Shown piece after piece: positions 3,589-50,770 of a DNA stretch of 64,000 nt. The stretch lies in assembly GCA_016235455.1 (NCBI GenBank), contig JACRKZ010000067.1, forward strand, positions 96,001 to 160,000, read 5' to 3'. Numbering within the stretch: the first letter of the stretch is position 1; every line of letters starts with the position of its first letter. The translations under genes and the position numbers were made by a program. The notes below the pieces were generated by a model. It did not search any database. It was not told where the DNA came from and saw nothing but the letters and a program-made list of their open reading frames with translations. The DNA is from Armatimonadota bacterium. Its GTDB lineage: Bacteria > Armatimonadota > UBA10988.

Positions 3589-3750
3589 GCACCGCGAGCC
3601 GCTGCTGGACCGCTGAGCCAGCTTCGCTGGCGGCAGCTCCTGCTTGGCATCGGCCGCAAGGCCGACCCATGGGCGTCGCCGTTGGGAAGGTCGGGTCTAC
3701 GACCCGATGCCAAGCAGGAGCTTGGCGGTCCGGCACCGGTTCGGGCTGCT
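3588..3750. repeat. REP-like inverted-repeat element, copy A
   Basis: Arms ...CAGCTCCTGCTTGGCATCGG / CCGATGCCAAGCAGGAGCTTGGCGGTCCGGCA; spacer shared with 10884-11038. Confidence 0.8.
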
Positions 3751-3832
3751 CGGTGCAGCCATCGCGTTCGCGGCGAGTAGCCGCCGACGCCGCGACTGGC
3801 TATACTTCGGCCGTGCCCGACGGGGATGAAGG

Positions 3833-5854
3833 ATGCTCCGACTGCTGTTGCTCTACCTGGCCGTGGCCGCCGCCGCCGCCCAGATCGCCGATCCCGCCCA
3901 TCCACCGGTGGGCATCAAGCCCAGCCGGCCGGTCAACTTCCACCCTCGGCCACCGCTCTACTCGACCGAGGAGCTGTGGCGCTACGAGACGCCCAAGGTC
4001 GAGGCCTTCGCCGCCCGGACCTGGACCGAAATGGTCCAGAGCTTCGAGCGCGGGCCATACCGGCCGACCTGGGACTCGCTGTCGGCGCATCGCTGCCCAG
4101 AGTGGTTCCAGGATGCCAAGCTCGGGCTGTTCGTCGACTACGGCCCATGGTCGGTGGCGGGCTACGCGCCGTTCGCGGGCGCCGGCGCGGTCTACCCGGA
4201 CTGGTACGAGCTGCGCTTGGGCCACGAATGGAAGGCCTACCACGCGGAGACCTGGGGCGCGGATGTCACCGCGGACGATCTGGCCGACCTGATGGGCGCG
4301 CGGAAGTTCGATACCAAGGCCTTCTGCGAGATCGCCCGGGCCGGCGGCATGAAGTACGTCGTGCCGTTCCTCAAGCACCACGGCGGCTTCTGCCTGTGGG
4401 ACAGCTCGGTCACCCGGCGCGATGCCATTGACCGCGGGTTGGGCCGCGACTTCGCCGTGGAGTTCGCCCGCGACTGTCGCGCCGCCGGCCTGAAGTTCGG
4501 CACCTATGTCTCGCTGGGCGAGTGGGCCTACCCCGCCATCGACGGCAACCGGTTGCGCAAGTTCGGCTTCGGCGGCAAGATCGTGGGCGACCTGACTCCG
4601 GGCGAGCCGTTCATCGCCGGCAAGGTGCCGGTGCGTGACTACGCGCGCGACTACCTGGTGCCTCAGTGTAAGGAACTGATCGAGAAGACCAACCCCGACC
4701 TGCTGTGGTACGACGGCGAATGGGACGCGCCAGCCGAGACCTGGCGCGCGCCCGAGATCAATGCCTGGTACTACAACCGCGCCGCCCAGCGCGGCCAGGA
4801 GGTGGCCATCAACGACCGGAGCGGCAAAGGCTGCCGCGGCACGCCGGGCCGCTCGGACTTCATGTGCTCCGAGCACCACAGCCTCGACCCAGGCGCGCAG
4901 CAGCCGTGGGAAGAATGCCGCGGCATCGGCCATAGCTTCGGGTACAACTGGCAGGAGGCCTTCGACGACAAGTACGTGCTGTCCGAGCGCGAGTTGATCG
5001 GCATGGTCATCGACATCGTCGGCCGCGGCGGCAACCTGTTGCTGGTCATCAACCCCGACGGGTCCGGCGTCATACCGCCCAACCAGGAGCGCCGCATCCG
5101 CGCCTTGGGCCAGTGGCTGAAGGCCAATGGCCCGGCCATCTATGCCACCCGCGCGCTGAGCCTGCCCGCGCAGCCGGCGTGGGGCCGCATCACGCGCTCC
5201 AAAGCCGGCGACCGGCTCTATCTGCTGGTCACCAGGCTGCCCGCTGACAAACAACTGGCCGTGCCGGTCAAGGCCGCAGGGATCGGTCGGGCGCGGCTGC
5301 TTAGCGGCGCCCCGGTGCCGTTGACGGCGGGCGCCGACGGCTTCGGAGTTGACCTGTCGAAGCTGCCAGCCACCGCCTTCGACTCCGCGGCCACGGTGGT
5401 CGAGGTGGAGGTCAGGGGACCGCTCGTCGGCACGTTGCCCGCCGTGGCGCCGGCCGCCGACGGCAGCTACGCCCTGAGCTCGGCCAATGGCACGGCCAGC
5501 ACCACCGGCGGCCGGCCGACCGACCTGAAGATCAATGGCGACCCGCCGAAATTCGGCTACTGGGCCGGGCTGGACAATCAGATCACCTGGCGCCTGAGCG
5601 GCGCGCCGGGCCGCTACCGCGTGGTCGTGACCTATGCGGCGGACAACGACTGGAAGGGCCGTGCCGTGGTCACGGTCGGCGGCCGCGCGCTACCGTTCGC
5701 GGTGACGGGCACCGGCGGCACAACCGTGACGCGGGCCGTCGATCTGGGCACGGTCGAGCTGGAGAGCGGGGCCACGCTCGTCGTGCGCGGGACCGAGAAG
5801 CAGAGCCCGTACCTGATGGACGTCTACGGCGTGAAGCTGGTGCCCGTGAGGTAG
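3833..5854 (+). CDS. Alpha-L-fucosidase (GH29) with C-terminal CBM-like domain
   Basis: PEWFQDAKLGLF, KHHGGF, LWYDGEW, INDR, WEECRGIGHSFGYN motifs; signal peptide. Confidence 0.9.
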   Translation: MLRLLLLYLAVAAAAAQIADPAHPPVGIKPSRPVNFHPRPPLYSTEELWRYETPKVEAFAARTWTEMVQSFERGPYRPTWDSLSAHRCPEWFQDAKLGLFVDYGPWSVAGYAPFAGAGAVYPDWYELRLGHEWKAYHAETWGADVTADDLADLMGARKFDTKAFCEIARAGGMKYVVPFLKHHGGFCLWDSSVTRRDAIDRGLGRDFAVEFARDCRAAGLKFGTYVSLGEWAYPAIDGNRLRKFGFGGKIVGDLTPGEPFIAGKVPVRDYARDYLVPQCKELIEKTNPDLLWYDGEWDAPAETWRAPEINAWYYNRAAQRGQEVAINDRSGKGCRGTPGRSDFMCSEHHSLDPGAQQPWEECRGIGHSFGYNWQEAFDDKYVLSERELIGMVIDIVGRGGNLLLVINPDGSGVIPPNQERRIRALGQWLKANGPAIYATRALSLPAQPAWGRITRSKAGDRLYLLVTRLPADKQLAVPVKAAGIGRARLLSGAPVPLTAGADGFGVDLSKLPATAFDSAATVVEVEVRGPLVGTLPAVAPAADGSYALSSANGTASTTGGRPTDLKINGDPPKFGYWAGLDNQITWRLSGAPGRYRVVVTYAADNDWKGRAVVTVGGRALPFAVTGTGGTTVTRAVDLGTVELESGATLVVRGTEKQSPYLMDVYGVKLVPVR

Positions 5855-5891
5855 TGCGCCGCAGTCAGCGGCGGCAGGAAGGGAAGCGACG

Positions 5892-6905
5892 ATGCTGGGC
5901 TGGGCGATCATCGGACTGGGCGGCGCCGGAACCGGGCACGCGCGGCGACTGGCCGACATACCGGAGCTGCGGCTCGTCGGTGGCTACGATCCGCAACCGG
6001 CGGCGCGCGCTGCGTTCGAACGGACCTTCGGCCTGCCCGCGGCGGACGATCTCGACGCGCTGTTGGCGCGCGGCGACATCGCCGGAGTGACCGTGGCCAC
6101 GTCCAGCGGGCAGCACGCCGAGGTGGCGCTGGCGGCCATCGCGGCCGGTAAACACGTGCTGGTCGAGAAGCCGCTCGGCATGACGGCTACCGAGGTGGCG
6201 ACCGTCCTGACCGCGGCGCAGGCGGCCGGCGTGGTGGCCGTGCCCTTCCACAACCGGCGGTTCGACCCCGACTTTGCCGTGGTGCACGACTGCCTGGCCT
6301 CGGGACGGCTCGGCCGGCTGAGGCGCATCCATTCGTATGTCGGCGGCCCGTCGCCCAATGAGGGTTGGCGCGCCGTACGCGCACAGGCCGGCGGCCGGCT
6401 CTATGACTGGGGTCCGCATCTGCTCGACCAGGTGCTCAGCCTGGCCGGCACGCTACCGGGCACTGTGTGGGGCGTCACGCACGTGCTGCCCGAACGCGGC
6501 GATGCCGATGAGTACTTCCGCGCCGACCTGCGCTTCGCCGACGGGCTGGACGTCACCGTGGAGATGTCCGGCTTCTCCTACCTGCGGCCGCAGCGCTGGG
6601 AAATCCTTGGCGATCTGGGCACGCTGCAGGTGACCGGCAACCTGCACGGCGAGTTCCGGCTCACCGTCGGAGTGGGCGCCGGTGAGCCCGAAATTCTCGA
6701 CACCAGCGCGGCCGCGGAGAATGCCCGGCGCGGCGACGGCGGCGTACTGATCTACCAGCAACTCGCCGCGCGCTTGGAGCGCGGCGAGCCGCTGACCGTC
6801 ACCTGCATGGACGCGTGGCGCGTGGCGGCGGTCATGGACGCCATCCGCGCCTCGGACCAGGCCGGCGCCGCCATCGCGCTGGAACTATCGAGCGGCACGG
6901 CGTGA
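5892..6905 (+). CDS. Gfo/Idh/MocA family oxidoreductase
   Basis: IIGLGGAG Rossmann motif, GKHVLVEKP, HNRRFD, GGRLYDWGPH. Confidence 0.9.
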   Translation: MLGWAIIGLGGAGTGHARRLADIPELRLVGGYDPQPAARAAFERTFGLPAADDLDALLARGDIAGVTVATSSGQHAEVALAAIAAGKHVLVEKPLGMTATEVATVLTAAQAAGVVAVPFHNRRFDPDFAVVHDCLASGRLGRLRRIHSYVGGPSPNEGWRAVRAQAGGRLYDWGPHLLDQVLSLAGTLPGTVWGVTHVLPERGDADEYFRADLRFADGLDVTVEMSGFSYLRPQRWEILGDLGTLQVTGNLHGEFRLTVGVGAGEPEILDTSAAAENARRGDGGVLIYQQLAARLERGEPLTVTCMDAWRVAAVMDAIRASDQAGAAIALELSSGTA

Positions 6906-6914
6906 GCCCGACCG

Positions 6915-7457
6915 CTACTCCTGTTCGGAGGCCGGCTTCTTGATGCCCACCTGCAGGCTGGACCACTCCAGCATCTTCCAGATGCCGGACTTGGTCAGCT
7001 TCATGCGGAACGGGCGTGGGTTGTCGGCGCCGCCGCACTTGACCATCAGGTAGACCACCTTGCCCTCCTGCTGGAGCTTGTCGGTGGTGAACTCGAGCTC
7101 GAACTTGTCCGGATCCATCTTGTAGTCGTTGTCCGGCACGGCGCCCTTGGCGTAGCTCTGGTAGAGGTAGGGCTGCTTCTGCAGGGTGGCGCGCCCCAGC
7201 ATCTCCTTCTCCCAGTCGGCGTTGTCCGTACTCGTGATCAGGCCGACCATCTCCCGGCCCTTGGCCTTGATGGTCTCGTCCGCGTTCAGATAGACATACA
7301 ACGCCTCGAGCCACAGGTGCGCCGCCGTCTTGTACTCCTTGCCCTCTGTCTCCAGTCGCGTCTTGAACTCGTCCACGGTGGCGGGCAGCTTGGCGCACGT
7401 CGGTGAAGCCACGCCTACGGCGCAGGCGCAGGCCAACAGCACTAGCAATCCACGCAT
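6915..7457 (-). CDS. Secreted hypothetical protein (DUF6935-like)
   Basis: Signal peptide MRGLLVLLACACA; SYAKGA.P.N.Y and GGADNPRP...W..LEWSSL motifs; GGAAGG RBS. Confidence 0.6.
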   Translation of the reverse strand: MRGLLVLLACACAVGVASPTCAKLPATVDEFKTRLETEGKEYKTAAHLWLEALYVYLNADETIKAKGREMVGLITSTDNADWEKEMLGRATLQKQPYLYQSYAKGAVPDNDYKMDPDKFELEFTTDKLQQEGKVVYLMVKCGGADNPRPFRMKLTKSGIWKMLEWSSLQVGIKKPASEQE

Positions 7458-7657
7458 GTTGGGCATCCCTTCCACGTCTCCGGCATCGCTGACGGCCTGG
7501 CTGCACCCAACACCCGTGAGCGTGCCGGCCGCCAGCGAGCGCTGGGCGGTTGGGCTGATTCTAGGCACGGCCGGTGGCGGTCGCTAGGGGTAACGCGGTG
7601 AGCCCGAGTGTGTCCTGACCAGCGCCACACCCGCGCCGGGCGGAACGCCTCGGCCCG

Positions 7658-8254
7658 TCACGACCTGGCCTCCGCCAGCAGCGCGTCCAGGTGCTGGTCG
7701 GGCGTGGCCGAGTCGTACGGGGCGAGTTCGCTCCAGGTGAGCATCGGCCCATCGGCCGGCCAAGGGCCGGAGACGCCGGCCATCTGGCCATGGCCGGCGG
7801 CCCAGTGCGGTGGATCGACGCGGAAGCGGAAGACGTAGAACGTGCCCTGCCGCGAGGTGCCGGGCACCTGGCGCGTGAGCGTGGCGGTCAGCGTCATCTC
7901 CGTGGGCAGGGCGCCCAGTTCGTGCGGATGCAGCAGCCAGGTGGCCATCTCCGACTCCGCCAGCCGGGGCTCGGCGGCCAGCGCAGGCGGGAAGAGGTCG
8001 AGACGCTGGCTGTCTTCGAGTGCCTCGTAGAGGTGCCAACGCGTGTCCAGCCGGTGCGCCAGCGCCGCCACCATCGCCTGGTCGACCGCCTGGCCCTGGT
8101 CCAGCGCCTTGGTGACTGGCGCGATGGCTGCGTCGAGCCGGGCCTCGAAAGCACGGTCGGTGCGGTCCAGGCCACCGCTTCCCATGGCCAGGTACAGACC
8201 CAGGCCGAAAAGCACCAACGCCACACAACCGAGGACCAGCAACTTGCGCTTCAT
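7658..8254 (-). CDS. Membrane-anchored hypothetical protein
   Basis: N-terminal TM MKRKLLVLGCVALVLFGLGLYL; LAESEMATWLLHPHELG..P motif; 10 nt downstream of the GH36 gene. Confidence 0.65.
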   Translation of the reverse strand: MKRKLLVLGCVALVLFGLGLYLAMGSGGLDRTDRAFEARLDAAIAPVTKALDQGQAVDQAMVAALAHRLDTRWHLYEALEDSQRLDLFPPALAAEPRLAESEMATWLLHPHELGALPTEMTLTATLTRQVPGTSRQGTFYVFRFRVDPPHWAAGHGQMAGVSGPWPADGPMLTWSELAPYDSATPDQHLDALLAEARS

Positions 8255-8264
8255 CACGACATCC

Positions 8265-10799
8265 CTACGCACCGGCACGCTCATAGACCAGCACGCGCAC
8301 GCCCGGCTGCTCGCCGATGGTCACCAGCAGGCCCGCGGCCAGCTCCGCGCCGGTCAGCATGCGCGGCGGCTGGTGCGCGTCCAGGTCAGTGACAGTGTAC
8401 TTCGCCGCGGCGTCAAGCCCGCGCAGCTTCAGGCGACCGGCCTCGTAGAAGCTGTCTTGCCGCCGGAAGACCTGCACCATGCCATCGCCCTGTTCGGGCC
8501 GGTCGAACTGCCAGCCGGCCCACACCGTGGCGTCGCGCGACACCGGCGTCAGTGGGTAGAAGTCGCCGTAATAGTACTTGTTGACCTGCCGCCACTGGCC
8601 ATAGAGCCGCCGTAGCGCCGGATAGTCCAGCCCGCGGTCACGCACATCGATGCCACTGCCCAGGCTCTGTCCCGCGTTGCTCCAGAACGCATAGGGCTCC
8701 ACCGGCGTGCGCCCGCCGCCATAGTAGCCCGCGTTGGCGCAGGCCACCGTGCCCGTACCGTGGTACGGCAGCCAGGTGCTCAGGCCCATCATCATGCACT
8801 GGTGGCCGATGGGCTCGAAGGCGTAGTCGCTGCGCCACAGCGGCACCGCGCGGCGCGCGCACTCCAGGTCCAGTCGGCGGCCGCCGCTGGCGCAATCGTC
8901 GATGAGCATGTCCGGGTGCCGCCGATGCAGCTCGTCCCAGTAGGCCAGGAGCCCCTCGCAATGGCGGATCTCGGTGATGCCTTGCCGGTCCTCGGCGTCG
9001 TGGCCGCGCCAGTAGCCCAGCGGGTCCATGTTGAAATCCTGGCGGTACAGCCCGATGCCCTGCTTGGTGAGCACGCTGTCGATGTGCTCGATGAGCCATT
9101 TGCGCGCCTCGTCGTTGCCCAGGTCCAGCAGGCCGCCAGCCTTGCCGCCGAGCACCCACTCGGGATGGTTGTCGGCCAGCCAGGTGCCGGCCGAGACGCG
9201 TTCCGGCTCGAACCACAGCAGCGTCTTGAACCCGCGCGCCTTCGCATAATCTGAGATGGGCCGCAGCCCGCCGGGGAACCGCGCGGGATCGACTTCCCAG
9301 GTACCCACATGTGGCCAGCCGGCGCCGTTGTGGATGTACCAGCCGGCGTCCATCCACCAGTAGTCGAGCTTGAGCCCTTCCTCCTCGTAGCGGTCGATGA
9401 AGGCCTTCTGGTTGGCCTCGTCAGCCTCGATCATCTCGGCATACTGCCGCGAGCTGGAGGCCACGAACTGCGGCCGGGGCAGCTCGCCGCCGGGCCGCGG
9501 CATCGAATGCGCCATCGTCCAACGGCGCCACACGTTCTGCCCGCGCAACCAGTCGCCGCCCTGCCAGAACTGCAGGACGATGGACGGCGTGCGAATGGAC
9601 TCACCCGGATGCAGCCGGAGATGCGTCAGCTCCATGCCCGCGCGCACCCGTAGCCCGCTGCTCACGTCGCGCGCGAACTCGGCGGCCCACTGACCCGGCC
9701 AGCCCACTGCCAGCACAACGCCGCGCCGGCTGCCATCGCCGTGGGGCGACTCCAGGTTGAAGTACGACCAGTGCTGGTTGGTCGAGCGGCCGCCCGCGCC
9801 GCCAAAACGCGTGGTCGAGCCGCCGCCGAGCACCGTCTCGCGCGGGCTGAAGTCATTCCCGTCAGCCGGCGAGCCGACGTTGTGATGCAGCAGGTACTCG
9901 CCGCCACCAGGCCGATTGAGGTCGACCGCCAGCGCCTGAACCTGCTCCAGCAGCGGCGTATCCTGCTCGCCGGTGTTGGTGAAATGGACCGTCCATTCGA
10001 CCGTGGGGAATCCGGGGTAGGCCACGCCGGCCAGCCGCACCCGCAGGCCCGTAGCCGGATCGGTCCAGGTCTGCTCAGTACCACGGCGCTCGTGCTTCCA
10101 GGTGGGCAGGAGTTCCGACGACGGTTTGCCGCCATAGACGAACGAGAACGGCGGGCCGCCGGCCAGCAGCGCCGCCGCGCGGTCGTCGCGCAGCGGCAGA
10201 TCGCCCAGCCACAGCTCGCGTCCATCGGCCAGCGCGACCTTGGCCTCGGCCCAGTCGGCCTGGTCGCAGGCGATTCCGTCGGGTGTGGTGTCCACCTGCA
10301 GCAGAAACTCGGTCGCGCCGTCGAGCGGCACCTTGACGGCGGCCGGCGGCATCCCTTCGCGCACCGTGCCCGAGCGGAACCGCTCCCCGCCGGCCACGCT
10401 CACGGCGAAGTCGACACTGCCGCGGCCGCCGCTGGTCTGGGAGTTGCTGTCCACGCCGACCAGCGCCGTGAACGTGGCGCCGGGGCCGGGCAGGCGCACC
10501 AGAATGCGGCTCGGCGCATGGCAATAGACGCCGCGCTCGAAGCTCTTGCCGGCCAGCAATAGCGGCTTGCCCTGCCGCGCGTTGAGGCTCGGCGCGTCGT
10601 GGTTGGCCAGGACGGTGAGGCCCGGCTCAAGCTGCGAGCCCGGCGTCTCACCACTCAACCGCGTGGCGGCGAATCGCGCCGCGAAGCCCTGCTCGTCTGG
10701 TGTGACCGTCACAGCCTTGCCCTCCGCGGCCAGCGCCAACGGCGCCAGCGCCGCCAGCGCCAACGGCGCCAGCGCCAGCAGGAACATGGATGGTGCCAT
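8265..10799 (-). CDS. Alpha-galactosidase (GH36) with N-terminal NPCBM/NEW2 domain
   Basis: YWWMDAGW, RFPGGL, LWFEPE, YRQDFN, DDCASGGRRLD; NPCBM GVYCHAPS...DQADWAEA. Start 10799 or 10808. Confidence 0.9.
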   Translation of the reverse strand: MAPSMFLLALAPLALAALAPLALAAEGKAVTVTPDEQGFAARFAATRLSGETPGSQLEPGLTVLANHDAPSLNARQGKPLLLAGKSFERGVYCHAPSRILVRLPGPGATFTALVGVDSNSQTSGGRGSVDFAVSVAGGERFRSGTVREGMPPAAVKVPLDGATEFLLQVDTTPDGIACDQADWAEAKVALADGRELWLGDLPLRDDRAAALLAGGPPFSFVYGGKPSSELLPTWKHERRGTEQTWTDPATGLRVRLAGVAYPGFPTVEWTVHFTNTGEQDTPLLEQVQALAVDLNRPGGGEYLLHHNVGSPADGNDFSPRETVLGGGSTTRFGGAGGRSTNQHWSYFNLESPHGDGSRRGVVLAVGWPGQWAAEFARDVSSGLRVRAGMELTHLRLHPGESIRTPSIVLQFWQGGDWLRGQNVWRRWTMAHSMPRPGGELPRPQFVASSSRQYAEMIEADEANQKAFIDRYEEEGLKLDYWWMDAGWYIHNGAGWPHVGTWEVDPARFPGGLRPISDYAKARGFKTLLWFEPERVSAGTWLADNHPEWVLGGKAGGLLDLGNDEARKWLIEHIDSVLTKQGIGLYRQDFNMDPLGYWRGHDAEDRQGITEIRHCEGLLAYWDELHRRHPDMLIDDCASGGRRLDLECARRAVPLWRSDYAFEPIGHQCMMMGLSTWLPYHGTGTVACANAGYYGGGRTPVEPYAFWSNAGQSLGSGIDVRDRGLDYPALRRLYGQWRQVNKYYYGDFYPLTPVSRDATVWAGWQFDRPEQGDGMVQVFRRQDSFYEAGRLKLRGLDAAAKYTVTDLDAHQPPRMLTGAELAAGLLVTIGEQPGVRVLVYERAGA

Positions 10800-10883
10800 G
10801 GGTCGCATGGTAGCACTTCCCCTGGTGGGGGATTGGCTGTTCGCTGGCGGTCACCTGCCGCGCCGGATGGCCACCAGAACCAC

Positions 10884-11038
10884 GATCGGCGCCGCCAGTG
10901 CCGGACCGCCACGCTCCGGCGTGGCATCGGCCACAGGCGAAGCCGGCGGCCGACCGGATGGCGTCGCCGTTGGGAAGTTCGGGTCTGCGACCCGATGCCA
11001 CGCTGGAGCGTGGCGGTCCGGCACTGGCGGCGCTGATC
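10884..11038. repeat. REP-like inverted-repeat element, copy B (about 47-bp arms)
   Basis: GATCGGCGCCGCCAGTGCCGGACCGCCACGCTCCGGCGTGGCATCGG ... CCGATGCCACGCTGGAGCGTGGCGGTCCGGCACTGGCGGCGCTGATC. Confidence 0.9.
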
Positions 11039-11043
11039 CGTGC

Positions 11044-13797
11044 CTACGCGCCTCTCACCTCGACGGTCCCACTCGGCCCCACCGGCGCGCCACCCCTCAC
11101 GGGCACACGCAGCGTCACCGTCCGCTCGCCCTCGCCGGCGGCGATGGTCACCGCGAACGGCGCCGGCGCGCCGTCGGCCTTGGTGCCCAGCAGCACACCG
11201 TCGACCCACACTTCGGCCGCGCCGCCGAGCTCGGCGAAGCACAGCGCCCCGCCTTGCGCGCGCGCCGCGGCGAACGGCGTGAACTGGGCGCGGAACAGCA
11301 CCCAGCCGTCGCTGGGCAGAGTCTGGCAACCAGTCTCGGGGCGCACCTGGAACCACGAGTTCATGTCACTGTCGGCGATGACCTGCCGCGGGTCAGGCGC
11401 CTCGTTGGTCAGCGGCGACATGCGCCAGCGGCTCACGCGCAGCGTCGGCGGCTCGGGCGCCACCGCTGGCCGCGCCGGAGCGTCGGTCACCGTCAGGCGC
11501 AACTCGTAGCCCCTCAGGCCCTCGGCGTTGGCCGTCAGCACCACCTCGCCCGGCCCGCCGGTGGACTGGATGATGACCTGCGCCAGGCCGGCAAACAGCG
11601 AGCGCTGCCAGCCCTGCTCGGGCTCGTGGCAGGTGGGGTCGCCATTGCCCAGGCCGATGATGCGCGCTGGGCCGCTGATGGTGAAGGTCACCAGGTGGTC
11701 GGCGGTCGGATGCTCGAGCCAGGCGTCGTCGCTGGCCACGGCCCGCACTTCGACCGGCAGCACATGTTCGCCGTCACCCAGCAGCCCGCCGTCGTGCAGC
11801 AGTTGCAGCGCCACGGGCTCGCCCTGCGTCTCGACATACTCCACCAGGCCCGGACCGTGGTCGGGCGCCGAGGCCGTCAGCGTACCCGGCTCATAGGGCA
11901 CCAGCCACTCGGCGGTGCCGTCGGGTGCGACCGTCTGCCGGCCCTGGCTGCGGTGGTTGAGCCGCAGCTCCACCTCCGGCAGCGTGGTGATGACCATGAC
12001 CTTGATCGGCTCGCCCTCGCGGCCGGCCCAGTTCCAGTGCGGCGCGATGCGCAGCATGGGCTCCCTGATCCACTGGACCTGGTGCAGGTAGAAGGCGGTC
12101 TTGGGGAAGCCGCACTGGTCCATGATGCCGAAGAACGACCCGACCACGGGCCACACGTGCGGCGTGGGCTCGCCATGGTAGTCGAAGCCGGTCCAGGTGA
12201 ACCCGCCGGCCAGCCACTCGCGGTCGGCCACCGCGCGCCATCCGGCGCGGTGCGTGGCGCCCCAGGGCGCGGCCTGCGTGTCGTCTTCGGCCATGATGCA
12301 GCGCTCGCTGTCGGTGGTCCAGGCGCCGCGCGTCATGAAGGCCGAGGTGTCCTCGCTGCTGGTAACCGGCAGCGCCGGGTTGGCCGCATGGAAGCGGTCG
12401 TAGGAGTCGATCTGGTAGTTGAACCCGACCACATCCACCGCCTGGCTGACGTTGACCGGCTCGAACAGCCCGCCGTTCATGGCTGCGGTCACCGGCCGAG
12501 TGCGGTCCAGCGCCCTGACCACGCTGGCCATGCGCCGCACCATCTCGTAGCCCACGGGCGAGCCCTGCATAGGCTCCTCGTTGAACACCGACCACAAGAT
12601 GACGCTAGGGTGGTTGCGGTCGCGCCGCACCAGCCATTCGAGCTGCCGCACATACTCGGGCGAGCAGTTGAAGTGGCGGTTCTCGTCCATGACCAACATG
12701 CCCAGCCGGTCGCAGGCGTCCAGTAACTCCACCGATGGCGGGTTGTGGGCACAGCGATAGGCGTTGCAGCCCATCGCCTTGAGCCGGCGGATGCGCCATT
12801 CGACCAGCGCGTCGGGCACCGCCACGCCCACGCCGGCATGGTCCTGATGGTTGCAGGTGCCTTGCAGCTTGACCGGCTGTCCGTTGAGGAAGAAGCCCTG
12901 GTCGGCATCGAAGCGCAGCGTGCGGAACCCACAGGTCGTGGTCACCTCGTCGACCACCGCGCCGTCGACCAGCAACTCGCTGTGCACGCGATACAAGTAC
13001 GGCTCATCGACCGACCACAAGTTCACTGACGGCACATCCAGCACCATGGCGGCCTCGGCCTCGCCGAGCACCGGCACCAGCGCCTGGACCGCGCCGCCGA
13101 CCACCGGCCGCCCGTCGGCGTCGAGCAGTGTCGACCGCACCTGCACCGCCGCGTCGTCGTGTCCGCAGTTGGCCAGCGTCACGCTCACGGGCAAGCGCCA
13201 GCCGTCCCCGCCGCGCACCGGGTCGGCATGCACGCCGTCGGTGACGATATGCACCGGCGCGCGCTTGGTCAGCCAGGTGTGGCGATAGATGCCGCCGCCC
13301 TCATACCACCAGCCCTCCATGGCATTGGCGTCGACGCGCACGGCGATGACGTTGATCGCATCGCCATAGGTGGCGAACGGCGTGATGTCGATGTGGAACG
13401 ACGTGTAGCCGCACCAGTTGCGATGCACCACCGTGCCATTGACCCACACCGTGCAGTGCGTGGCCACGCCATCGAAGCTCAGTTCCAGGTGCCGGCCACG
13501 GTCGGTCTCCTCCAGCCGCAACCGCCGCCGATACCAGGCGATGCCCCGCGGCCGATAGCCTTGGGACGGGTTGGCCTGGGGGTCGAACGGCCCTTCCACC
13601 ACCCAGTCGTGCGGCAGATCGAGCACGCGCCACTCGCTGTCGTCGAAGTCGGGCGCGGCGGCGCCCCAGGCCACGCCGGCCTTGGCGTTCATGTAGGTGT
13701 CGCCGTGACCGTTGAGCGACGGGAACGCGATGTCGCCGAGATGGAAGCTCCAGCCGAGGTCGAGACGGAGGTGGTCGCGGGCGGGTTGATCGGGCAT
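11044..13797 (-). CDS. Beta-galactosidase (GH2)
   Basis: LPHDW, WYEGGGIYR, NHQDHAGVG, RCAHNPP, RDRNHPSVILWSVFNEE, GGFTWTGFDYHGEPTP. Confidence 0.95.
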   Translation of the reverse strand: MPDQPARDHLRLDLGWSFHLGDIAFPSLNGHGDTYMNAKAGVAWGAAAPDFDDSEWRVLDLPHDWVVEGPFDPQANPSQGYRPRGIAWYRRRLRLEETDRGRHLELSFDGVATHCTVWVNGTVVHRNWCGYTSFHIDITPFATYGDAINVIAVRVDANAMEGWWYEGGGIYRHTWLTKRAPVHIVTDGVHADPVRGGDGWRLPVSVTLANCGHDDAAVQVRSTLLDADGRPVVGGAVQALVPVLGEAEAAMVLDVPSVNLWSVDEPYLYRVHSELLVDGAVVDEVTTTCGFRTLRFDADQGFFLNGQPVKLQGTCNHQDHAGVGVAVPDALVEWRIRRLKAMGCNAYRCAHNPPSVELLDACDRLGMLVMDENRHFNCSPEYVRQLEWLVRRDRNHPSVILWSVFNEEPMQGSPVGYEMVRRMASVVRALDRTRPVTAAMNGGLFEPVNVSQAVDVVGFNYQIDSYDRFHAANPALPVTSSEDTSAFMTRGAWTTDSERCIMAEDDTQAAPWGATHRAGWRAVADREWLAGGFTWTGFDYHGEPTPHVWPVVGSFFGIMDQCGFPKTAFYLHQVQWIREPMLRIAPHWNWAGREGEPIKVMVITTLPEVELRLNHRSQGRQTVAPDGTAEWLVPYEPGTLTASAPDHGPGLVEYVETQGEPVALQLLHDGGLLGDGEHVLPVEVRAVASDDAWLEHPTADHLVTFTISGPARIIGLGNGDPTCHEPEQGWQRSLFAGLAQVIIQSTGGPGEVVLTANAEGLRGYELRLTVTDAPARPAVAPEPPTLRVSRWRMSPLTNEAPDPRQVIADSDMNSWFQVRPETGCQTLPSDGWVLFRAQFTPFAAARAQGGALCFAELGGAAEVWVDGVLLGTKADGAPAPFAVTIAAGEGERTVTLRVPVRGGAPVGPSGTVEVRGA

Positions 13798-13920
13798 GTT
13801 GTCGGCTCCGGGGGAGATGGTAGCGGGTGAGGCGGTTGTCGGCTAGGGGCTGTGGCAACTGCGCCTGGCGTCAGCTGCGGATGCCGCGCCGGTCAGTTGG
13901 GCCAGCGGCCGGGCCAGACT

Positions 13921-14240
13921 GGTTACACCGCGCTCCAGCGCGGCCTTGGAGTCCGGCTCGGAGCCAAACGGTGCATCGGTTGTCCAGCCAGTGCCGCCAG
14001 TGCCGGTGCGCCAATCGCCAGATTGGCATCGGCCGGAGGCGCAGCCGCAGGCCGACATCGCGGCGGACCTGTGGCCAACGGTGGTCCTACGGACCACTGC
14101 CAAGCTGGAGATGTCGCCAGCTCTGCCATCTCAGCGTACCGGCGTCAGCGCTGCTGGTCCTCGGCGCTGGAGACGGCCAACGCCGAGTAGAATCGCCATT
14201 CGCTTGGAGGCCGGCATGGCGCCAAGGCGCGGCGAGCCCG
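13921..14240. repeat. Composite REP-like element, copy C (13986-14210), nested in a degenerate outer REP pair
   Basis: About 225 bp matching the reverse complement of 50543-50770; outer arm CCGCGCTCCAGCGCGGCCTTGG near 13928 and CCAAGGCGCGG near 14222. Confidence 0.8.
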
Positions 14241-14254
14241 GACTGGCCCCGACT

Positions 14255-15265
14255 CTAGCGCAGCCACTTCTCGTCGATCTCGAAGGCGTCGATAAGCGGG
14301 GTGGAATCCGAGATGGGCATCTGATTCCAGCGTCCACGCCACGGCTGCGGCGGCACGCGGTCGGGTTGGTACGACAGCCCGCCGCCGTCCAGCCCGATGG
14401 CCATGCCCACGGTCAGCCGCCAACGGCCGGCGAACAGCCATCCCTCCCACTCCGGCGCGCCGAGCAAAGCCGCCACCTCGGCTCGCGAGCGGCCCAGCAA
14501 GCGCCCGCTCGCGATCAGGTCGAGAGCCAGGGCCACGCGTCGGCCCGGCTCCTGCCGCCAGAGCGCCGCGTCGAACGATCGGCGCGCGGGCACCGGGTCC
14601 CGGTCCCTGGCAGTGCGCCACAGCTTCACCTCAACCGCACCCGACCAGGGCGTGTAGAACACCTCCAACAGGGGCGCCGCTGTGTTGCCTGGCGGCGCCA
14701 GTCGGTAGTTCTGCTCAATGGTGCGCGGCCGGTAGCCGAACCGCGGCTCGTCGACCAAGCCGGTGCCGGGCACGGCGCTCACGTAGTCAGGCACCAAGGA
14801 CTGCAGCCGGGGTGGCGGATGCTGATGGTCCTTCTCGTAGCGACCGATGGCCGCGATGAGCGTGTCGGTGCGCGCGTCGAAGCGCACCTTCGCCGCCTCG
14901 TTGCCGCGCCGCGCCGCCCACATGCCCCCCGGCACGCTGGCAACCAGGGCCAGGTGGAAGGCCAGGACGATCCATGCGGCCACCCTGACCGGACGACCGC
15001 GCCGCCGAGCCCACGACCGCAGACAGAGCAAACAGAGCCCGCCGGCTAGCCCGCCGAAGAATGGGTACACGCAGAGAAGGCCCTCAAAGCCGATGCCGCC
15101 GTTCTTGAGTTCCCGGCCCTGCCAGGCACCCACCACCATGCGCAGCCACATCAGCTCCACCGCGGCGAGCCCTGAGCACCAGGCGACAGCAACCAGGCCG
15201 GCACACACCAGGACGATGGCGCGGAAGACGCGCCCGACCTGATCTCTTCGCAATGTCGTCGCCAT
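14255..15265 (-). CDS. Membrane protein: three TM segments, a pseudopilin-like motif and an SmpA/OmlA-like segment
   Basis: AGGAG RBS before MATTLRR; LIAAIGRYEKDHQHPPPRLQSLVPDY; FDAALW...LLGRSRAEVAALLGAP. Confidence 0.6.
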   Translation of the reverse strand: MATTLRRDQVGRVFRAIVLVCAGLVAVAWCSGLAAVELMWLRMVVGAWQGRELKNGGIGFEGLLCVYPFFGGLAGGLCLLCLRSWARRRGRPVRVAAWIVLAFHLALVASVPGGMWAARRGNEAAKVRFDARTDTLIAAIGRYEKDHQHPPPRLQSLVPDYVSAVPGTGLVDEPRFGYRPRTIEQNYRLAPPGNTAAPLLEVFYTPWSGAVEVKLWRTARDRDPVPARRSFDAALWRQEPGRRVALALDLIASGRLLGRSRAEVAALLGAPEWEGWLFAGRWRLTVGMAIGLDGGGLSYQPDRVPPQPWRGRWNQMPISDSTPLIDAFEIDEKWLR

Positions 15266-15368
15266 GGCCAAGCTCCTGCTCGGGGCGGGTCGCGGTCGCC
15301 CCAGCGGCCGCGGCATCCGGCGCCTGCCCGAACAACCAACGTGCGACGACGGCGGATCCGCCACCGAG

Positions 15369-16901
15369 TCACCGCCGCCGCCGTGGCCCCAGCCAGCCGG
15401 TGCAGCCTGAGCGGCCCTCCGGCCGCGCTCCAGGCGCCGCCGGCATCGGCGGAACGGGCCCGACAAACCCGCTCAGTCCGCTGGCCCGCGCGATCTGGGC
15501 GTAGACCGGCCAGGTGGAGTCCGGGTCGATCCTGGCCGCCTGGCGAATGCGTTCCCAGGCCTCCTCCTTGCGACCGAGCTCCAGGGCGCACAGCGCCAGC
15601 GCCTGCAACGCCGGCGCCGAGCCCGGCTGCAGCTCGACCGCCCGGCGGTAACGGGCGATCGCCTCCTCGCGGCGACCCAGCTCACACAGCACGTTGGCGC
15701 TGACGATCCAGGCCTCGGCCTCGGTTGGCGTCGCGGCCAGCCACTCCTCGCACTTGGCCAGAGCGGCCTCCGGCTCGCCAAGCCGGAGCAACCAGAGCGC
15801 CCAGTCGGCGTAGACTGGCGCCCAGCCCGGGCGGATGGCCAGCGCCGCGGCGAACTTGCCGGTAGCGGCTTCCCAGTCACCGCGCATGGCCAGGCACAGG
15901 CCCCACAGATGCAGCGACGGGTAGAGGCGCGGCTGGACAGCCAGCGCGGCCCGGAGCCGCTCTTCGGCGCGGACCAGGTCGCCATCGACCAGTGCCCTGC
16001 GCCCCAGGTGGTGGAGAGCGATGGCATCGCGCGGGTCGGCCGCAAGCGCCTGCTCGAACCACCGCTCGGCCTCGCCCGGCGTGCCCTGTCGCACAGCGTG
16101 GAGGCCCCGCGACCGCAGCGCCACGCCGCAGCTCGCGTCGGCTTCGAGCGACCTGCGCAGCGACTCCAGTCCAGCCGTCTCACGGCCGTCAGCCAGCAAT
16201 GCGCTGCCGCGCCAGGCCCAGGCCTCCGCGTCGCTTGGGTTGAGGGCGAGCGCGCGCTCATAGTGCTCGATGGCGCCTGCGAGGTCGCCCTGCGTTTGGT
16301 GCGTTGTGCCGACAACCACGAGTGTGCTCACGTCGTCCGGCACGATACCGAGGGCCGCATGGTACTTGGCCAAGGCGCCGTCAAGGTCCCCTGCGTCGAA
16401 CAGCGCATGGCCCCAGCAGAGCAGCGCGGACCAGTGCCCTGGATCAGCCGCCAAGGCCGCTCGGCACTTGGCGATGGCGCCTTCGGCATCACCCAGGCGC
16501 TGTAGAGCCGAGCCCCATTCGCAGAGGGCGCGAGCATCGCCCGGGTCGCGAGCCACGAGTTCCGACAGGATGGGCACGGCAAGCTCCGGCTCGCGCGCTG
16601 CGGTGTGCTGCACGGCGATGCTCAGCAGCACTTCGGGGGCGGCCTGGCCGTCATGCTCTTCACCCCACGCCGCCGCCTCGCGTAGCAGTGCCATCACCTC
16701 GGCGCGCCGGCCCACGCCGGCCTCGGCGGCGATCAACTTGGCCTCGTACAGCCGCTCGAAATCCACGTCCCCGTTCGCCGAAGCCCAGTCAGTCAACTGC
16801 CGGAGCCGCCGAGTCCACGCCTGCGGGTCGTTGCGCCAGCGGGGTTCGGCTTCGAGATAGGCATCTCTGTAGCGGGCCAGCCGTGCGGCTCGGTCAGTCA
16901 T
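15369..16901 (-). CDS. Tetratricopeptide repeat protein
   Basis: About 11 tandem TPR-like units (A...Y.RALAL.P.DA.AW); GGAGG RBS. Confidence 0.85.
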   Translation of the reverse strand: MTDRAARLARYRDAYLEAEPRWRNDPQAWTRRLRQLTDWASANGDVDFERLYEAKLIAAEAGVGRRAEVMALLREAAAWGEEHDGQAAPEVLLSIAVQHTAAREPELAVPILSELVARDPGDARALCEWGSALQRLGDAEGAIAKCRAALAADPGHWSALLCWGHALFDAGDLDGALAKYHAALGIVPDDVSTLVVVGTTHQTQGDLAGAIEHYERALALNPSDAEAWAWRGSALLADGRETAGLESLRRSLEADASCGVALRSRGLHAVRQGTPGEAERWFEQALAADPRDAIALHHLGRRALVDGDLVRAEERLRAALAVQPRLYPSLHLWGLCLAMRGDWEAATGKFAAALAIRPGWAPVYADWALWLLRLGEPEAALAKCEEWLAATPTEAEAWIVSANVLCELGRREEAIARYRRAVELQPGSAPALQALALCALELGRKEEAWERIRQAARIDPDSTWPVYAQIARASGLSGFVGPVPPMPAAPGARPEGRSGCTGWLGPRRRR

Positions 16902-42963: not shown

Positions 42964-42973
42964 GGTGCGCGCC

Positions 42974-43831: not shown

Positions 43832-43941
43832 GGCGTCCTTCCCATCTGGCTCTGATGGTAGCCGATGCCCGGCACGACGACCAGACTGGCTTCGCGCCGC
43901 TGGGCTTGATACACTGGCGCCCGATGCTGGAGATCGGTCGC

Positions 43942-45396: not shown

Positions 45397-45406
45397 GAGC
45401 AGGCGC

Positions 45407-46468
45407 ATGGCCTACATGGGACCCAACCCGACCGACGTGAACCAGACCATCGCCGAGGTCGGCATCGCCCGCGCCATCGGCAGCCACCATGTGGCCAGCC
45501 TGCTGTTCACATACCGCTGCACCATCGCCTGCGGGCACTGCCTGTTCGCCTGCTCGCCCACACTGCCCGACGTCTGCTGCGAGCTTGACGAGGCGGTCGA
45601 TTGGCTGGGCCAGCTGCTGAGCACCAACCGCGTGGTGCATATCGCCGGCGGCGAGGCGATGATCGCCTGGGACCGCCTGCTGGCCGTGTGTCGCGCGGCG
45701 TCGGCGGCCGGCGCTATGCCGCACTTCATCGAGAGCAACGCCTCCTGGGCCACCTCTGATGTACTGGTGCGCGAGCGGCTGACGCTGCTGCGCGACCTGG
45801 GTCTGCGCGGCATGTTGTACAGCGCCGACCCGTACCATCAGGCGTTCGTGCCGCCCGAGCGCCGACTGCGCGCGTACACCATCGCCGTCGAGGTGTTTGG
45901 CGCCCAGAACGTCATCGCCGCGGATCTGACGCTGCCGCAATTGGAGGAACTGCGCGAGATCGGTCGCGACGAGCAACGCCTGGCCGACTACACGCGCTCG
46001 CATCCGCCCAATCTGGTCGGGCGCGCCGGCGACTCGCTGGCCGCCCACTTCCCTGACCGACCGCTGGACGAGCTGGCCGGCGATCGCTTGTGGCACGGCG
46101 AGCACAGCCAACGGCACTGCCAGATCGAGTTCGACCCGCGGCGCATGTGGGAGATCCACATCGACCCGTACGGCAATCTGCAGACCTGCTGCGGCATCGT
46201 GCTGGGCAACCTGCGCCGTCGCTCGCTGGCCGACCTGATGGGCAACGGCTTCGACGACAGCGCCGTGCTCCGCGCCGTGCGCGACGATGGGCCGTTCGCG
46301 CTGCTGGCGCTGGCCGAGTCGCACGGCTACCAGCGCCGGCCCGGCTACAAGCAGAAGTGTCATCTCTGCTGGGAGGTGCGCAGGCACCTGCGCACGTACT
46401 ATCCAGAGCAACTGGGCCCCGACGAGGTCTATGGAGAACCGTCATCCACACCGCCATCCTCTCGCTGA
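45407..46468 (+). CDS. Radical SAM protein with SPASM/twitch-like C-terminus
   Basis: CTIACGHC, AGGE, ESNASWA, SADPYHQAFVP, DPYGNLQTCCG..LGN, CHLC. Confidence 0.88.
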   Translation: MAYMGPNPTDVNQTIAEVGIARAIGSHHVASLLFTYRCTIACGHCLFACSPTLPDVCCELDEAVDWLGQLLSTNRVVHIAGGEAMIAWDRLLAVCRAASAAGAMPHFIESNASWATSDVLVRERLTLLRDLGLRGMLYSADPYHQAFVPPERRLRAYTIAVEVFGAQNVIAADLTLPQLEELREIGRDEQRLADYTRSHPPNLVGRAGDSLAAHFPDRPLDELAGDRLWHGEHSQRHCQIEFDPRRMWEIHIDPYGNLQTCCGIVLGNLRRRSLADLMGNGFDDSAVLRAVRDDGPFALLALAESHGYQRRPGYKQKCHLCWEVRRHLRTYYPEQLGPDEVYGEPSSTPPSSR

Positions 46469-48303: not shown

Positions 48304-48319
48304 ACCGAAAGGCGAAACG

Positions 48320-49177
48320 ATGAGCAACGGCACACAGGACGTGGCGTACGACTTGCCGGTGGTGGCGGTGACAGCAGCCAACCTGCCGGCGGCCTGGGAG
48401 CAGGCCGTCATGCAGACCTGGGAGCGTGGCGCGCCCATCGCCACGCAATACGACCAGCCCGGCGACCCACCCTCGCGTGACGCCTTCGCCGTGATCACCG
48501 TGCTCGACCCGTTCGCCGAGCCGCGCATCCACAAGGCCATCCCGTGCGGCATCAAGGACCTGGAAGCCTATCGCCAGGAAGTGGTCGACGGCATCCACGA
48601 CCACTGGATCGACCCGGCCGCGGGCAAGTGGGAGTACACCTACCACGAGCGCATCGCCGCCTACAGCGTGCCCGGACTGGCGCAGCCGGTCGACCAGATG
48701 GCCTATGTGGTGGAGGCGCTGGCCGAGGCGCCGCACTCACGCCGCGCGCAGGCCACCACCTGGAAGCCGTGGGAAGATGCCGGCTGCATCGACCCCGCCT
48801 GCCTGCAGCGGCTGTGGTTCAGAGTGTACGGCGACCGGCTGGTGCTGCACGCCGACATGCGCTCCAACGACGCCTTCAAGGCCTCGTTCATGAACATGTA
48901 CGCCTTCACCGACCTGCAGCGCGCCGTGGCCGAGCAGCTCACCGAGCGACTGGGCCGCGAGATCAAGGTCGGCCAGTACACCCACACCGCCAGCAGCTAC
49001 CACATCTACGGCAGCTACTACGACGAGTTCGAACGCTTCATCGAGTCGATGACCAAGCGCTCCTTCGCCGAGCGCACCTACCGCAGCGAGATTGTCGGGC
49101 CGGTCATCGACGAGGCCCGAGCGGAGATCGCGGAGTCGCTGCGCGTCGAGCGCGAGACGGGGCGGAAGGGGCTGTAG
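48320..49177 (+). CDS. thyA: Thymidylate synthase, archaeal-type ThyA-like
   Basis: YTYHER, DQ, SRRAQ..TW, PACLQ catalytic Cys, MRSNDA...MN, SYHIY. Confidence 0.8.
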   Translation: MSNGTQDVAYDLPVVAVTAANLPAAWEQAVMQTWERGAPIATQYDQPGDPPSRDAFAVITVLDPFAEPRIHKAIPCGIKDLEAYRQEVVDGIHDHWIDPAAGKWEYTYHERIAAYSVPGLAQPVDQMAYVVEALAEAPHSRRAQATTWKPWEDAGCIDPACLQRLWFRVYGDRLVLHADMRSNDAFKASFMNMYAFTDLQRAVAEQLTERLGREIKVGQYTHTASSYHIYGSYYDEFERFIESMTKRSFAERTYRSEIVGPVIDEARAEIAESLRVERETGRKGL

Positions 49178-49262
49178 CCCCGGCTTGACAACCGGCCCCG
49201 GCGCCGACCACACTCTCCTTGGTGCCGTCGCGTCAGCCAGCGGTCGGAGGGGAGCATCTGCC

Positions 49263-49805
49263 ATGAGCCTACTGCGTGGTCGGCGCCCGCACAGGGCGCG
49301 TTGGGCGTTGACTGCGACGCTGTGTCTGGCGGGCCTGGCGACCGCCGCCCAGGCGCGGTCGGTCAGGCCGTATGTGGTGCGGCTGACGCTCTGCGGCTGG
49401 CGCGTGGGAGCCACGAAGTTCGGCGCCCTGCACGACGCTGGCAGCGGCTACTACCTGATCGCCACGGGCGACTGCGACGGCGCGTCGCGCTCACTCATTC
49501 CGACGCCCGACCCGCCAGAGTGGACCAAGCCGTCGCCAGTGACCCAGACCCGCCTATCCCGCCTGCGGACCGGCACCGGTGTCAACATCGGCGACACCGT
49601 CTCGGTGGTCGCGGCCAAACTCGGCGCCCGGCCGGACTCCATCAGCAACGACCGCGAGACCGGTTAGGTCACCTACGCCTACTGGCGGCAGGTGCGGCCG
49701 CGCACGTGAGGACGGAGCGACGACCGCTATACGGCCGAGTACACCTTCCGCGACGGCACGCTGCGCGCGATACGCTACAGCGTATGCGACTCGCGCCGCT
49801 GCTAG
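49263..49805 (+). pseudogene. Paralog of 49945-50502 interrupted by in-frame TAG (49665-67) and TGA (49707-09)
   Basis: Shared RPY.VRLTL, GYYLIATGDCDGAS, RLRTGTGVNIG; similarity continues past both stops (RYTAEYTFRD versus RYGATYTFRD). Confidence 0.8.
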
Positions 49806-49944
49806 TAAGGCGCCGGGTGCGGCGTGGGAGACGGGGCGAAGGAGGCTGCGATTCCGTCGGGCTGGCGGCGTGCGCCGACCCATCCGACTTGACACGCCCA
49901 ATGCCACGAACCACGATCTCACCGACGATGTAAGGAGTACCACG

Positions 49945-50502
49945 ATGGGGACCAGACGAGTCATCGCGGGAATCGCAGGGCTGGCGGTGCTGTTCATTGT
50001 GGCGACCGCGCTTGAGGCGGCCGCCGGCCAGCCTCGGCCCTACCTCGTGCGGCTGACTCTGGCCGGCGGCAAGTTGGTCGACCAGGCTGACTACTGCAAG
50101 TTCGACAAGAACCAAGGCTACTACCTGATTGCCACCGGCGACTGCGATGGCGCTTCCGTTGACTTGGTGCTTACGCCGGACCCCACACCCTACGGCTGGG
50201 GTGGCGACACCACGGACGGCGGCCGGCCGCCGACACCGGCTAGCCTGCCGCGCCTGCGCACGGGCACCGGCGTGAACATCGGCGAGTCGCCCAAGCAGGT
50301 GCTGGCCAAACTGGGCGCCAAGCCTGAGAGCAACACCTACGACAAGAAGACCAGAGTGCGCGAGATGTGCTTCTACGCCAAGGTCAAGGTGCGATCCATG
50401 GGTCGCGACTACACACGGTATGGTGCCACCTACACCTTCCGCGATGAGAAGCTGTGGAAGATCGGCTACGGCATCGGGACGGAAGATGGCTGCGGTGAGT
50501 AG
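49945..50502 (+). CDS. Secreted hypothetical protein
   Basis: TAAGGAG RBS; signal peptide MGTRRVIAGIAGLAVLFIVATALEA; promoter TTGACA-17-CACGAT at 49889-49917. Confidence 0.8.
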   Translation: MGTRRVIAGIAGLAVLFIVATALEAAAGQPRPYLVRLTLAGGKLVDQADYCKFDKNQGYYLIATGDCDGASVDLVLTPDPTPYGWGGDTTDGGRPPTPASLPRLRTGTGVNIGESPKQVLAKLGAKPESNTYDKKTRVREMCFYAKVKVRSMGRDYTRYGATYTFRDEKLWKIGYGIGTEDGCGE

Positions 50503-50542
50503 CTCTGCGTGCGCCACGCGCAGCGAGTAGTCTGCCGTTCCA

Positions 50543-50770
50543 CCTCGGGGCGGATGGCGGTTCCACTCGGTGGTGGCAGTCTCCGGCGCCGACGACTGGC
50601 TTCGCTGACGCCGGTATGCCGATCTCCAGATTGGCAGTGGTCCGCAGGACCACCGATGGCCGCCGGACCGCCGCGATGTCGACCTGCGGCTCCGCCTCCC
50701 GCCGATGCCAATCTGGAGATGCCGCCAGTTCTGCTGGCTCAGCGCACCGCCACTGGCGGCACTGACCGGC
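50543..50770. repeat. REP-like inverted-repeat element, copy D
   Basis: Reverse complement aligns along its length with 13986-14210; arm cores GCCGATCTCCAGATTGGC and GCCAATCTGGAGAT. Confidence 0.85.

Follow-up and report, generated by a model that had tools for sequence, protein, structure and literature searches.

A 22-nt stem-loop unit at one exact junction in nested palindromic intergenic repeats of an Armatimonadota bacterium

A 22-nt unit replaces a triplet at one junction in seven repeat arms

The draft genome of an uncultured Armatimonadota bacterium known from groundwater metagenomes (G000; 6.5 Mb, 69% G+C, 185 contigs) contains nested palindromic intergenic repeats, seven arms of which carry a 22-nt unit at one and the same junction. 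Three of these arms lie in a 64,000-nt stretch of contig C35 (positions 96001-160000, hereafter the window), which is the main subject of this report. We propose, with the chances about evenly balanced, that the unit is an accessory stem-loop module of repeats organized in the manner of REPINs (doublets of repetitive extragenic palindromes, REPs) and BIMEs (bacterial interspersed mosaic elements), and that it has been moved by short-patch templated exchange.

The window holds four palindromic elements, A to D, with arm pairs at 3637/3720, 10914/11008, 14016/14110, and 50624/50718. The arm motif has nine matches in the window against 1.44 expected, a count reached by none of 100 shuffles, and eight of the nine are the two arms of each of these elements. 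Element A (3595..3743) is a nested palindrome with family I-like arms (GCTCCTGCTTGGCA); its left arm, at 3637, bears a unit of 22 nt with a TTC loop (type beta; 3614..3635, + strand, TGAGCCAGCTTCGCTGGCGGCA), and its right arm, at 3720, has CAA at the corresponding place. Element C (13980..14202) belongs to family II, with a short flank on the left and a long one on the right, and its 22-nt unit (14112..14133, - strand, TGAGATGGCAGAGCTGGCGACA) is of type alpha with a decayed 5' stem, located at the junction adjoining the GTGGTCC head. Element D (50544..50788), also of family II, is homologous to C in reverse orientation and carries a 22-nt unit with an alpha loop and a GGCGGCA end (50720..50741, - strand, TGAGCCAGCAGAACTGGCGGCA) at the junction adjoining the TCGG head. 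Element B (10881..11045, i.e., C35:106881-107045) is of family I, has CAC at both junctions, and is without the unit. A preliminary description of the window had recognized these three units and had read the remaining five arms as a CGC box, a triplet, and a CTCC-like segment; the sequences at these positions bear out both statements, the five arms being CGC-CAA-GCTCC, CGC-CAC-GCTCC (twice), CGC-CAA-TCGCC, and TGC-CGA-TCTCC. The unit thus takes the place of a 3-nt piece (CAA, CAC, or CGA) between the CGC box and (G/T)CTCC..TGGCA.

Repeat loci were collected genome-wide by BLASTN with six representative elements, giving 58 loci and 88 arm-like hits. The tabulation of arms that had been suggested as a check shows the 3-nt junction in 69 of these 88 and the unit in seven (two of which were missed by the regular expression and recognized by eye in the same output); a further seven with other distances are degenerate boxes or false arms, and five have no box, so that the real arms among these hits show no insert of a length other than the unit's. 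By their loops, five units are of the alpha kind with AGA or AGAA (C12:6808, C177:15827, C35:21642, C35:110133, C35:146741) and two of the beta kind with TTC (C35:99614, which is window 3614, and C28:237). Across the genome, a fuzzy search for the unit with up to five substitutions finds matches in a repeat context at these seven places alone, a search for the unit's right half together with the adjoining arm gives the same seven and nothing else, and the left half at 0-1 mismatch matches known copies only. Since close matches occur only at the arm junction, at seven places genome-wide, the position of the unit is not due to chance, and the notion of a discrete module at one exact junction is upheld.

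The unit is likewise not an assembly artefact, because contigs of run X1, which comes possibly from the source sample and was put together with another assembler, bridge 3614 and 14112 without gaps. Among the pieces listed, X1 is the sole run that bridges both sites; those of X3, X5, and X6 break off before the repeats or where these begin (one X5 piece, for example, ends at 3605). Moreover, a unit exists in a related species: the metagenome contig L131, with genes sharing 84-87% identity with those of this genome, has a 21-nt version (CGCGCCAGCGAGCTGGCGGCA) at the corresponding junction in an arm of family II. The two genes of L131 map to separate contigs here (C5 and C169) with no element beside them, and L131 is not syntenic with this genome.

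The ends of the unit bear on one of the explanations offered at the outset, namely that it is the excision scar of a TG...CA-ended, IS3-like insertion sequence (IS) that targets palindromes, with the parent expected between TGAGCCAGC... and ...GCTGGCGGCA. Insertion sequences that target REPs are on record (PMC1525189), and six of the eight units (the seven here and that of L131) start with TG and six end in CA. However, the ends are not the same in all copies as had been supposed, for the C12 unit ends in AA, the C28 unit in CG, and the L131 unit starts with CG; nor is there a 3-4 bp target duplication, three bases being replaced instead. The longer element that was expected to share these ends does not appear either: the half-unit searches reveal no split unit and no longer element bounded by unit halves in the assembly, though drafts may break at IS copies. 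To our knowledge, 22-nt scars with a conserved internal hairpin are not known from IS3-type transposition. In light of the variable ends, the missing duplication, and the absent parent, an IS origin or scar is unsupported and we regard it as scarcely credible.

Organization of the arms and predicted effect of the unit on their folding

Each arm consists of a tail (..CCGG-N-N-CGC) followed by a local hairpin of the form GCCA-xx-CT / CC / AG-xx-TGGC, in which the triplet CAA, CAC, or CGC is the middle of the 5' strand rather than a spacer. The arms fall into four families, viz., I (CCGGACCGC-CAC-GCTCCAGCGTGGCA), II (CCGGTACGC-CAA-TCTCCAGATTGGCA), III (GGGAGCGC-CAA-GCTCCAGCTTGGCA), and the small family IV (CTGGTTACGC-CGC-GCTC..GCGCGGCA). 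Their stems show compensatory differences between families (CCACGCT/AGCGTGG, CCAATCT/AGATTGG, CCAAGCT/AGCTTGG), and the predicted fold of a normal arm is a hairpin of 7-8 bp that includes the triplet, with -5.1 to -8.3 kcal/mol; the z scores of the arm folds are -2.3 to -3.4. Genome-wide, 19 strict arm pairs are 82-97 nt apart. Further inverted layers lie outside the arms, giving a nested palindrome of 150-300 bp; hence, the whole element is a large REPIN-like doublet, with the arms as inner layers of nested palindromes. The outermost hairpins of many composites are of the GTAG-tagged kind (GT(A/T)GT-ACC-GGCTTCAGCC-GG), and the arms themselves are without such a tag. Of the features of miniature inverted-repeat transposable elements (terminal inverted repeats, a target-site duplication, and a related autonomous element), long inverted ends are present; an autonomous parent was sought among the Y1 genes only.

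Given that the triplet is part of the arm's own hairpin, the unit is predicted to exchange that 7-8 bp hairpin for a new one of 5-6 bp (GCCAGC-loop-GCTGGC). The arm's own hairpin is indeed no longer predicted in unit-bearing arms. When the unit is folded by itself, the copy at 3614 has a stem of 6 bp and the one at 50741 a stem of 5 bp; the copy at 14133 has lost its own stem and pairs with the arm through its 3' half instead, in keeping with the earlier statement that two of the three form a clear hairpin. Element A as a whole folds into a single long hairpin (-68.7 kcal/mol, z -7.5), with the unit as a 6-bp side branch opposite the TTG of the partner arm. In the whole fold of element D (z -4.4), the unit is partly paired with a 10-nt inverted copy located in the flank, TGCCGCCAGT (+ strand) being the inverted repeat of ACTGGCGGCA 22 nt downstream; the fold of element C is weaker (z -1.8).

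These structures also speak to the idea that the unit is a selected functional site, e.g., a protein-binding site, an RNA-end hairpin, or a terminator. Its sequence is conserved across contexts and it occurs in intergenic positions after gene ends, as such a site might. Against this, the stem is lost in two of the seven copies, no T run follows the hairpin in the three window units, only seven copies exist, and no Rfam family reaches its gathering score in the window. The decayed stems in particular make a selected function very improbable.

Several other features of these elements are modular. In nine arms the TCGG head hairpin is short (TCGGCC-GCA-GGCCGA; e.g., window 3650-3667), and in 19 arms it takes a long form in which a GGC-GAA-GCC mini-hairpin is nested (e.g., window 14029-14060), the latter being a second example in these elements of one hairpin set within another. 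The outer flank at the GTGGTCC head also occurs in two forms, the long one about 23 nt longer than the short, and an TCAGCGYYGCCNG-like segment stands in opposite orientation between them (window 14134-14200 and 50560-50622; contigs C12, C177, C178, and C35:21640-21710). Two core-less elements (C104:29850 and C131:4416) comprise only a tail, the arm hairpin, and an inverted tail, together one perfect long hairpin (CCGGACCGCCACGCTCCAGCGTGGCGGTCCGG), which suggests that the basic repeat is a single long hairpin and that the larger elements are its doublets. Finally, another family of repeats, with about 14 copies (GTAGTCCCCCCGCGAGCGGGGGGAC) that invariably follow a C run and T, is a classical GTAG-tagged REP unrelated to the arms, found, for example, at C35:55024 (outside the window), C40:21271, C67:1422, and C173:8250.

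Inheritance of the unit with its element and its proposed exchange between arms

The two different head hairpins allow 13 family II elements to be oriented. Six of them have the long outer flank on the GTGGTCC-head side, and five of these six carry the unit versus none of the seven others. The four carriers with the unit on the long-flank side agree at 25-28 of 30 positions in the flank and at 20-24 of 26 in the inner sequence, and their units are only 16-21/22 identical, with the 5' stem lost in two copies. As the units diverge and lose stems while the flanks are shared, this comparison of sequences suggests that in this subfamily the unit was copied along with the element and has been under no visible constraint.

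A different relationship is seen between the two beta units. Those at C35:99614 and C28:237 are identical at 21 of 22 positions and sit in elements of different families, with left flanks agreeing at 11/30 and inner sequences at 8/26 positions. Immediately to the left of element C, a solo arm that is of family IV type (13917..13948, + strand; CCAGACTGGTTACAC-CGC-GCTCCAGCGCGGCC) is the counterpart without the unit of the unit-bearing arm at C28:237. One could suppose that a unit-bearing arm predates the split of the families and spread by ordinary descent and whole-element copying, and the presence of four of the seven units in one subfamily with shared flanks, as well as of a unit at the same junction in a related species, would fit such a history. 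Yet the near-identity of the beta units amid surroundings this diverged contradicts pure descent, and with it one ancient subtype as the sole source. Further, in the co-descending group the unit decays faster than its flanks, and each family would have had to retain a rare unit-bearing minority for long. We therefore consider descent alone improbable.

Elements C and D provide a second departure from simple inheritance. As the preliminary description had noted, they are homologous with the unit in opposite arms: their alignment spans 292 columns at 83% mean column identity, in opposite orientation, with reciprocal 19-nt gaps at the two junctions. A single inversion as the cause of this arm swap was rejected, because it would flip the core too, and the core of D keeps the orientation relative to the flanks that all eight informative elements show. 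The D unit ends in GGCGGCA like the TTC-loop units and unlike the other AGA-loop units. More generally, the last two bases of the unit track the triplet of the recipient, being CA in the CAA families (5/6) and CG in the lone arm of the CGC family. The earlier view that simple inheritance does not suffice for all cases is thus borne out by the beta units and by the D unit; as judged from the sequences compared, the unit would have arrived at least four separate times in this genome, always at one junction, and would be in part inherited with the element and in part exchanged between arms.

In the history that we favor, the unit would be a passenger without a function of its own, in accord with the decayed stem of two copies. 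Copying of whole elements would carry it along, and short-patch templated copying, i.e., template switching or gene conversion between hairpin-forming arms, would have moved it from one arm to another at least three times. Hairpin-forming repeats stall replication and could so give a chance for such copying, which might be aided by the sequence that arms share directly left (the CGC box) and right ((G/T)CTCC.G) of the junction. The process would have to be blind to most of the arm sequence and exact about the junction. The long and short flanks, and the heads with and without the GGC-GAA-GCC hairpin (19 versus nine arms), would then be further instances of a general modularity.

Several observations weigh against this proposal. 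Between families, the sequence shared beside the junction is very short, 3-9 nt to its left and 5-14 nt to its right, less than RecA-type conversion usually needs. The replacement is equally exact everywhere (22 for 3), which could indicate an enzyme with a fixed cut site. No empty/filled polymorphism was seen; among the 12 matches listed of 25 (contigs of four runs, over window 2500-16500), there are no indels at 3614-3635 or 14112-14133, which does not bear on polymorphism, run contigs being prone to drop rare variants. No donor-recipient pair can be named, and the copies number only seven, plus one in the relative. Arm exchange between REP subtypes, one of the two mechanisms put forward originally, stands as the preferred mechanism; its exchange step is plausible and would have to operate on short shared junctions.

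Two other sources of the unit were rejected. One is a miniature element of the IS200/IS605 type (palindrome-associated transposable element, PATE): PATEs are marked by a pair of unlike subterminal hairpins and insert seamlessly on the 3' side of a fixed tetra- or pentanucleotide, and the unit has one hairpin and replaces a triplet. The other is derivation from an inverted copy of the arm, the similarity being weak.

Y1 genes and the spread of the arm motif across genomes

Three Y1_Tnp genes are encoded in this genome (C159, C129, and C111), and no arms occur within 1.5 kb of any of them in this assembly, which is 93% complete. One is flanked by palindromes of 44 and 32 nt of another type. This is the gene on C159 for a 162-aa protein (palindromes at L001:1337-1445 and 1940-2010), and the GGCTGAAGGCCCGGTGTCAA part resembles, by eye, the outer GTTGTACCGGCTTCAGCC hairpins of the composites.

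A different picture emerges from a metagenome-assembled genome (MAG) labelled Planctomycetota (G061), where a gene for a 221-aa Y1 protein resembling RAYTs (REP-associated tyrosine transposases) lies at 1192-1857 of the locus L238:946-2110, with repeat arrays on both sides in which the arm motif alternates with a second hairpin, TGCCGGGCAGAGCCCGGCGGTCC. This is the classical arrangement of a repeat-associated transposase locus, here of the same repeat superfamily. The G061 protein is 25-30% identical over about 100 residues to two of the Y1 proteins of the Armatimonadota genome. When the unit was compared with the second repeat subtype of this MAG (TGCCAGGCAGAGCCTGGCGGTCC), the local score was 12, a value reached by 0-0.3% of shuffles and by 2.6-4% of random hairpins of like composition; the comparison with the other variant in the MAG gave no signal. 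The second subtype is absent from G000, in which generic GCCAG...CTGGCGG hairpins occur 92 times by chance. Kinship of the unit to this subtype is therefore a lead only, and a weak one once hairpin structure is controlled.

Such enzymes underlie another account of the unit, according to which it is a site-specific micro-element, a hairpin cassette of about 20 nt that is cut and pasted as single-stranded DNA by an HUH/Y1 (RAYT-like) enzyme nicking between the CGC box and the arm hairpin. Its occurrence at one junction in four arm subtypes and on either arm, its near-identity (21/22) in unrelated contexts, and its absence elsewhere in the genome are what such an element would be expected to show, as are the three Y1_Tnp genes and the presence of the identical arm motif on both sides of a Y1 gene in another genome. 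However, the unit replaces three bases and is not a seamless addition, and peel-and-paste of the IS200/IS605 type is not known to leave a three-base replacement. It also has one hairpin instead of two ends, arms are missing from the flanks of all three Y1 genes here (their resemblance to the arm-flanked Y1 being 25-30% over about 100 residues), two copies with a decayed stem are still in place, and movement in trans finds no direct support. On balance, a micro-element of this kind appears unlikely. The more specific proposition that the junction is the nick-and-rejoin site of an HUH/Y1 enzyme, with the unit as a cassette of about 20 nt that it shuffles between unrelated arms, we hold to be quite unlikely.

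The distribution of the arm motif is uneven. The element region has no match outside G000 among 40 relatives, and the motif is found in none of 60 sampled relatives; with two mismatches allowed, the five nearest relatives give 0-3 hits against 0-2 in the control, which is chance level. Nevertheless, MAGs labelled Planctomycetota, Cloacimonadales, Verrucomicrobiales, and Methylumidiphilus contain the motif in identical form, as do metagenome contigs with a G+C content of 50-70%. The carriers are L032, L041, L046, L055, L063, L083, L090, L093, L094; L020, L044, L064, L077, L087; L051; L017, L023; and L129, L161, L172, L196. The arm motif, 24-26 nt in length and of the form GG(A/T)(A/C)CGCCA(A/C)GCTCCAGC(G/T)TGGCA, is unchanged in MAGs labelled as four phyla. 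REP-type repeats have been described as vertically inherited, and this patchy cross-phylum spread is unusual for them. A gapped pattern of the arm matched 85 stretches of genome contigs and 108 of metagenome contigs (80 of the 108 listed), those with a gap other than 3 being nearly all chance matches in coding DNA; among the stretches listed, the unit is present in L131 only, and the exact unit-plus-arm pattern matches no metagenome contig. In two unrelated MAGs, a 27-nt repeat that consists solely of the arm motif is arrayed head to tail without spacers (L055:870-970 and L023:1-150).

Genomic context of the window elements

All four elements are intergenic, lying between long open reading frames (ORFs) in the ORF list of the window. 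Element A, between two genes, follows the stop of ORF 997-3588 and is just upstream of a fucosidase ORF (3833-5854). Element B sits between two glycoside hydrolase genes, element C has a glycoside hydrolase gene on one side and the unassigned ORF 14255-15466 on the other, and element D is downstream of a gene for a DUF1559/N-methyl protein. The DUF1559 and N-methyl proteins of this genome are suggestive of the Planctomycetes-Verrucomicrobia group. The ninth match to the arm motif (window 15776-15788, - strand; CTCCGGCTTGGCG) has one mismatch and is outside elements A to D.

Relationship to known palindromic repeats

Like REPINs, which are associated with RAYT transposases (Bertels and Rainey, 2011; PMC3116915), the elements are intergenic inverted palindromic doublets that can fold into one long hairpin and number in the tens; the genome has Y1 genes, another genome has a Y1 gene with the identical arm motif on either side, and many composites are bounded by GT(A/T)G-tagged hairpins. 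Unlike REPINs, the doublet is several palindromic layers deep and 150-300 bp long, its arms are without a GTAG tag of their own, and no Y1 gene of this genome is flanked by arms.

In the BIMEs of Escherichia coli, several subtypes of palindromic unit are combined with a limited repertoire of linker motifs. Comparable features of the present elements are a mosaic of small alternative modules, subtypes that differ by short internal insertions, and alternating orientation. The two are unrelated in sequence and belong to different phyla, and the module described here is inside the foot of the palindromic unit, where it breaks the stem, and not between units. The term BIME appears in PMC2817692.

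Composite repeats in which degenerate GTAG REPs adjoin unrelated stem-loops, and families with terminal inverted repeats around Y1 genes, were described by Di Nocera et al. (2013; PMC3733652), along with hundreds of 'bizarre structures' in Pseudomonas that join a REP to another stem-loop and REP families in the Planctomycetes-Verrucomicrobia-Chlamydiae (PVC) group. The Pseudomonas composites and the PVC-group families resemble our layered elements; no consensus matching the arms or the unit was seen in the passages considered, and the family lists of that paper may hold a catalogued match. Insertion of IS1397, ISKpn1, and IS110-family elements into REPs (PMC1525189) similarly places a foreign sequence at a fixed position of a palindromic repeat, but those insertions are kb-sized and have a transposase gene, whereas nothing longer than 22 nt was found at the junction here. 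The exact string of the arm motif retrieved no papers in a literature search, and the literature searched, figures and supplements being outside its scope, yielded no description of the arm motif or of a 22-nt hairpin present or absent at a fixed junction.

Implications

Common as palindromic intergenic repeats are, the origin and mixing of their subtypes are poorly documented outside Pseudomonas and enterobacteria. If the exchange proposed here is template switching only, it would be a neat but ordinary case of palindrome instability. Were the cassette interpretation true, the unit would rank among mobile DNA modules as about the smallest one known and would naturally mark the cut site of an enzyme, and if the junction is such a cut site, it would offer a handle on where repeat-associated transposases act. 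A hairpin that some arms have and others lack at one exact base position, and that is nearly unchanged across differing families, provides a concrete and testable handle on the exchange between repeat copies.

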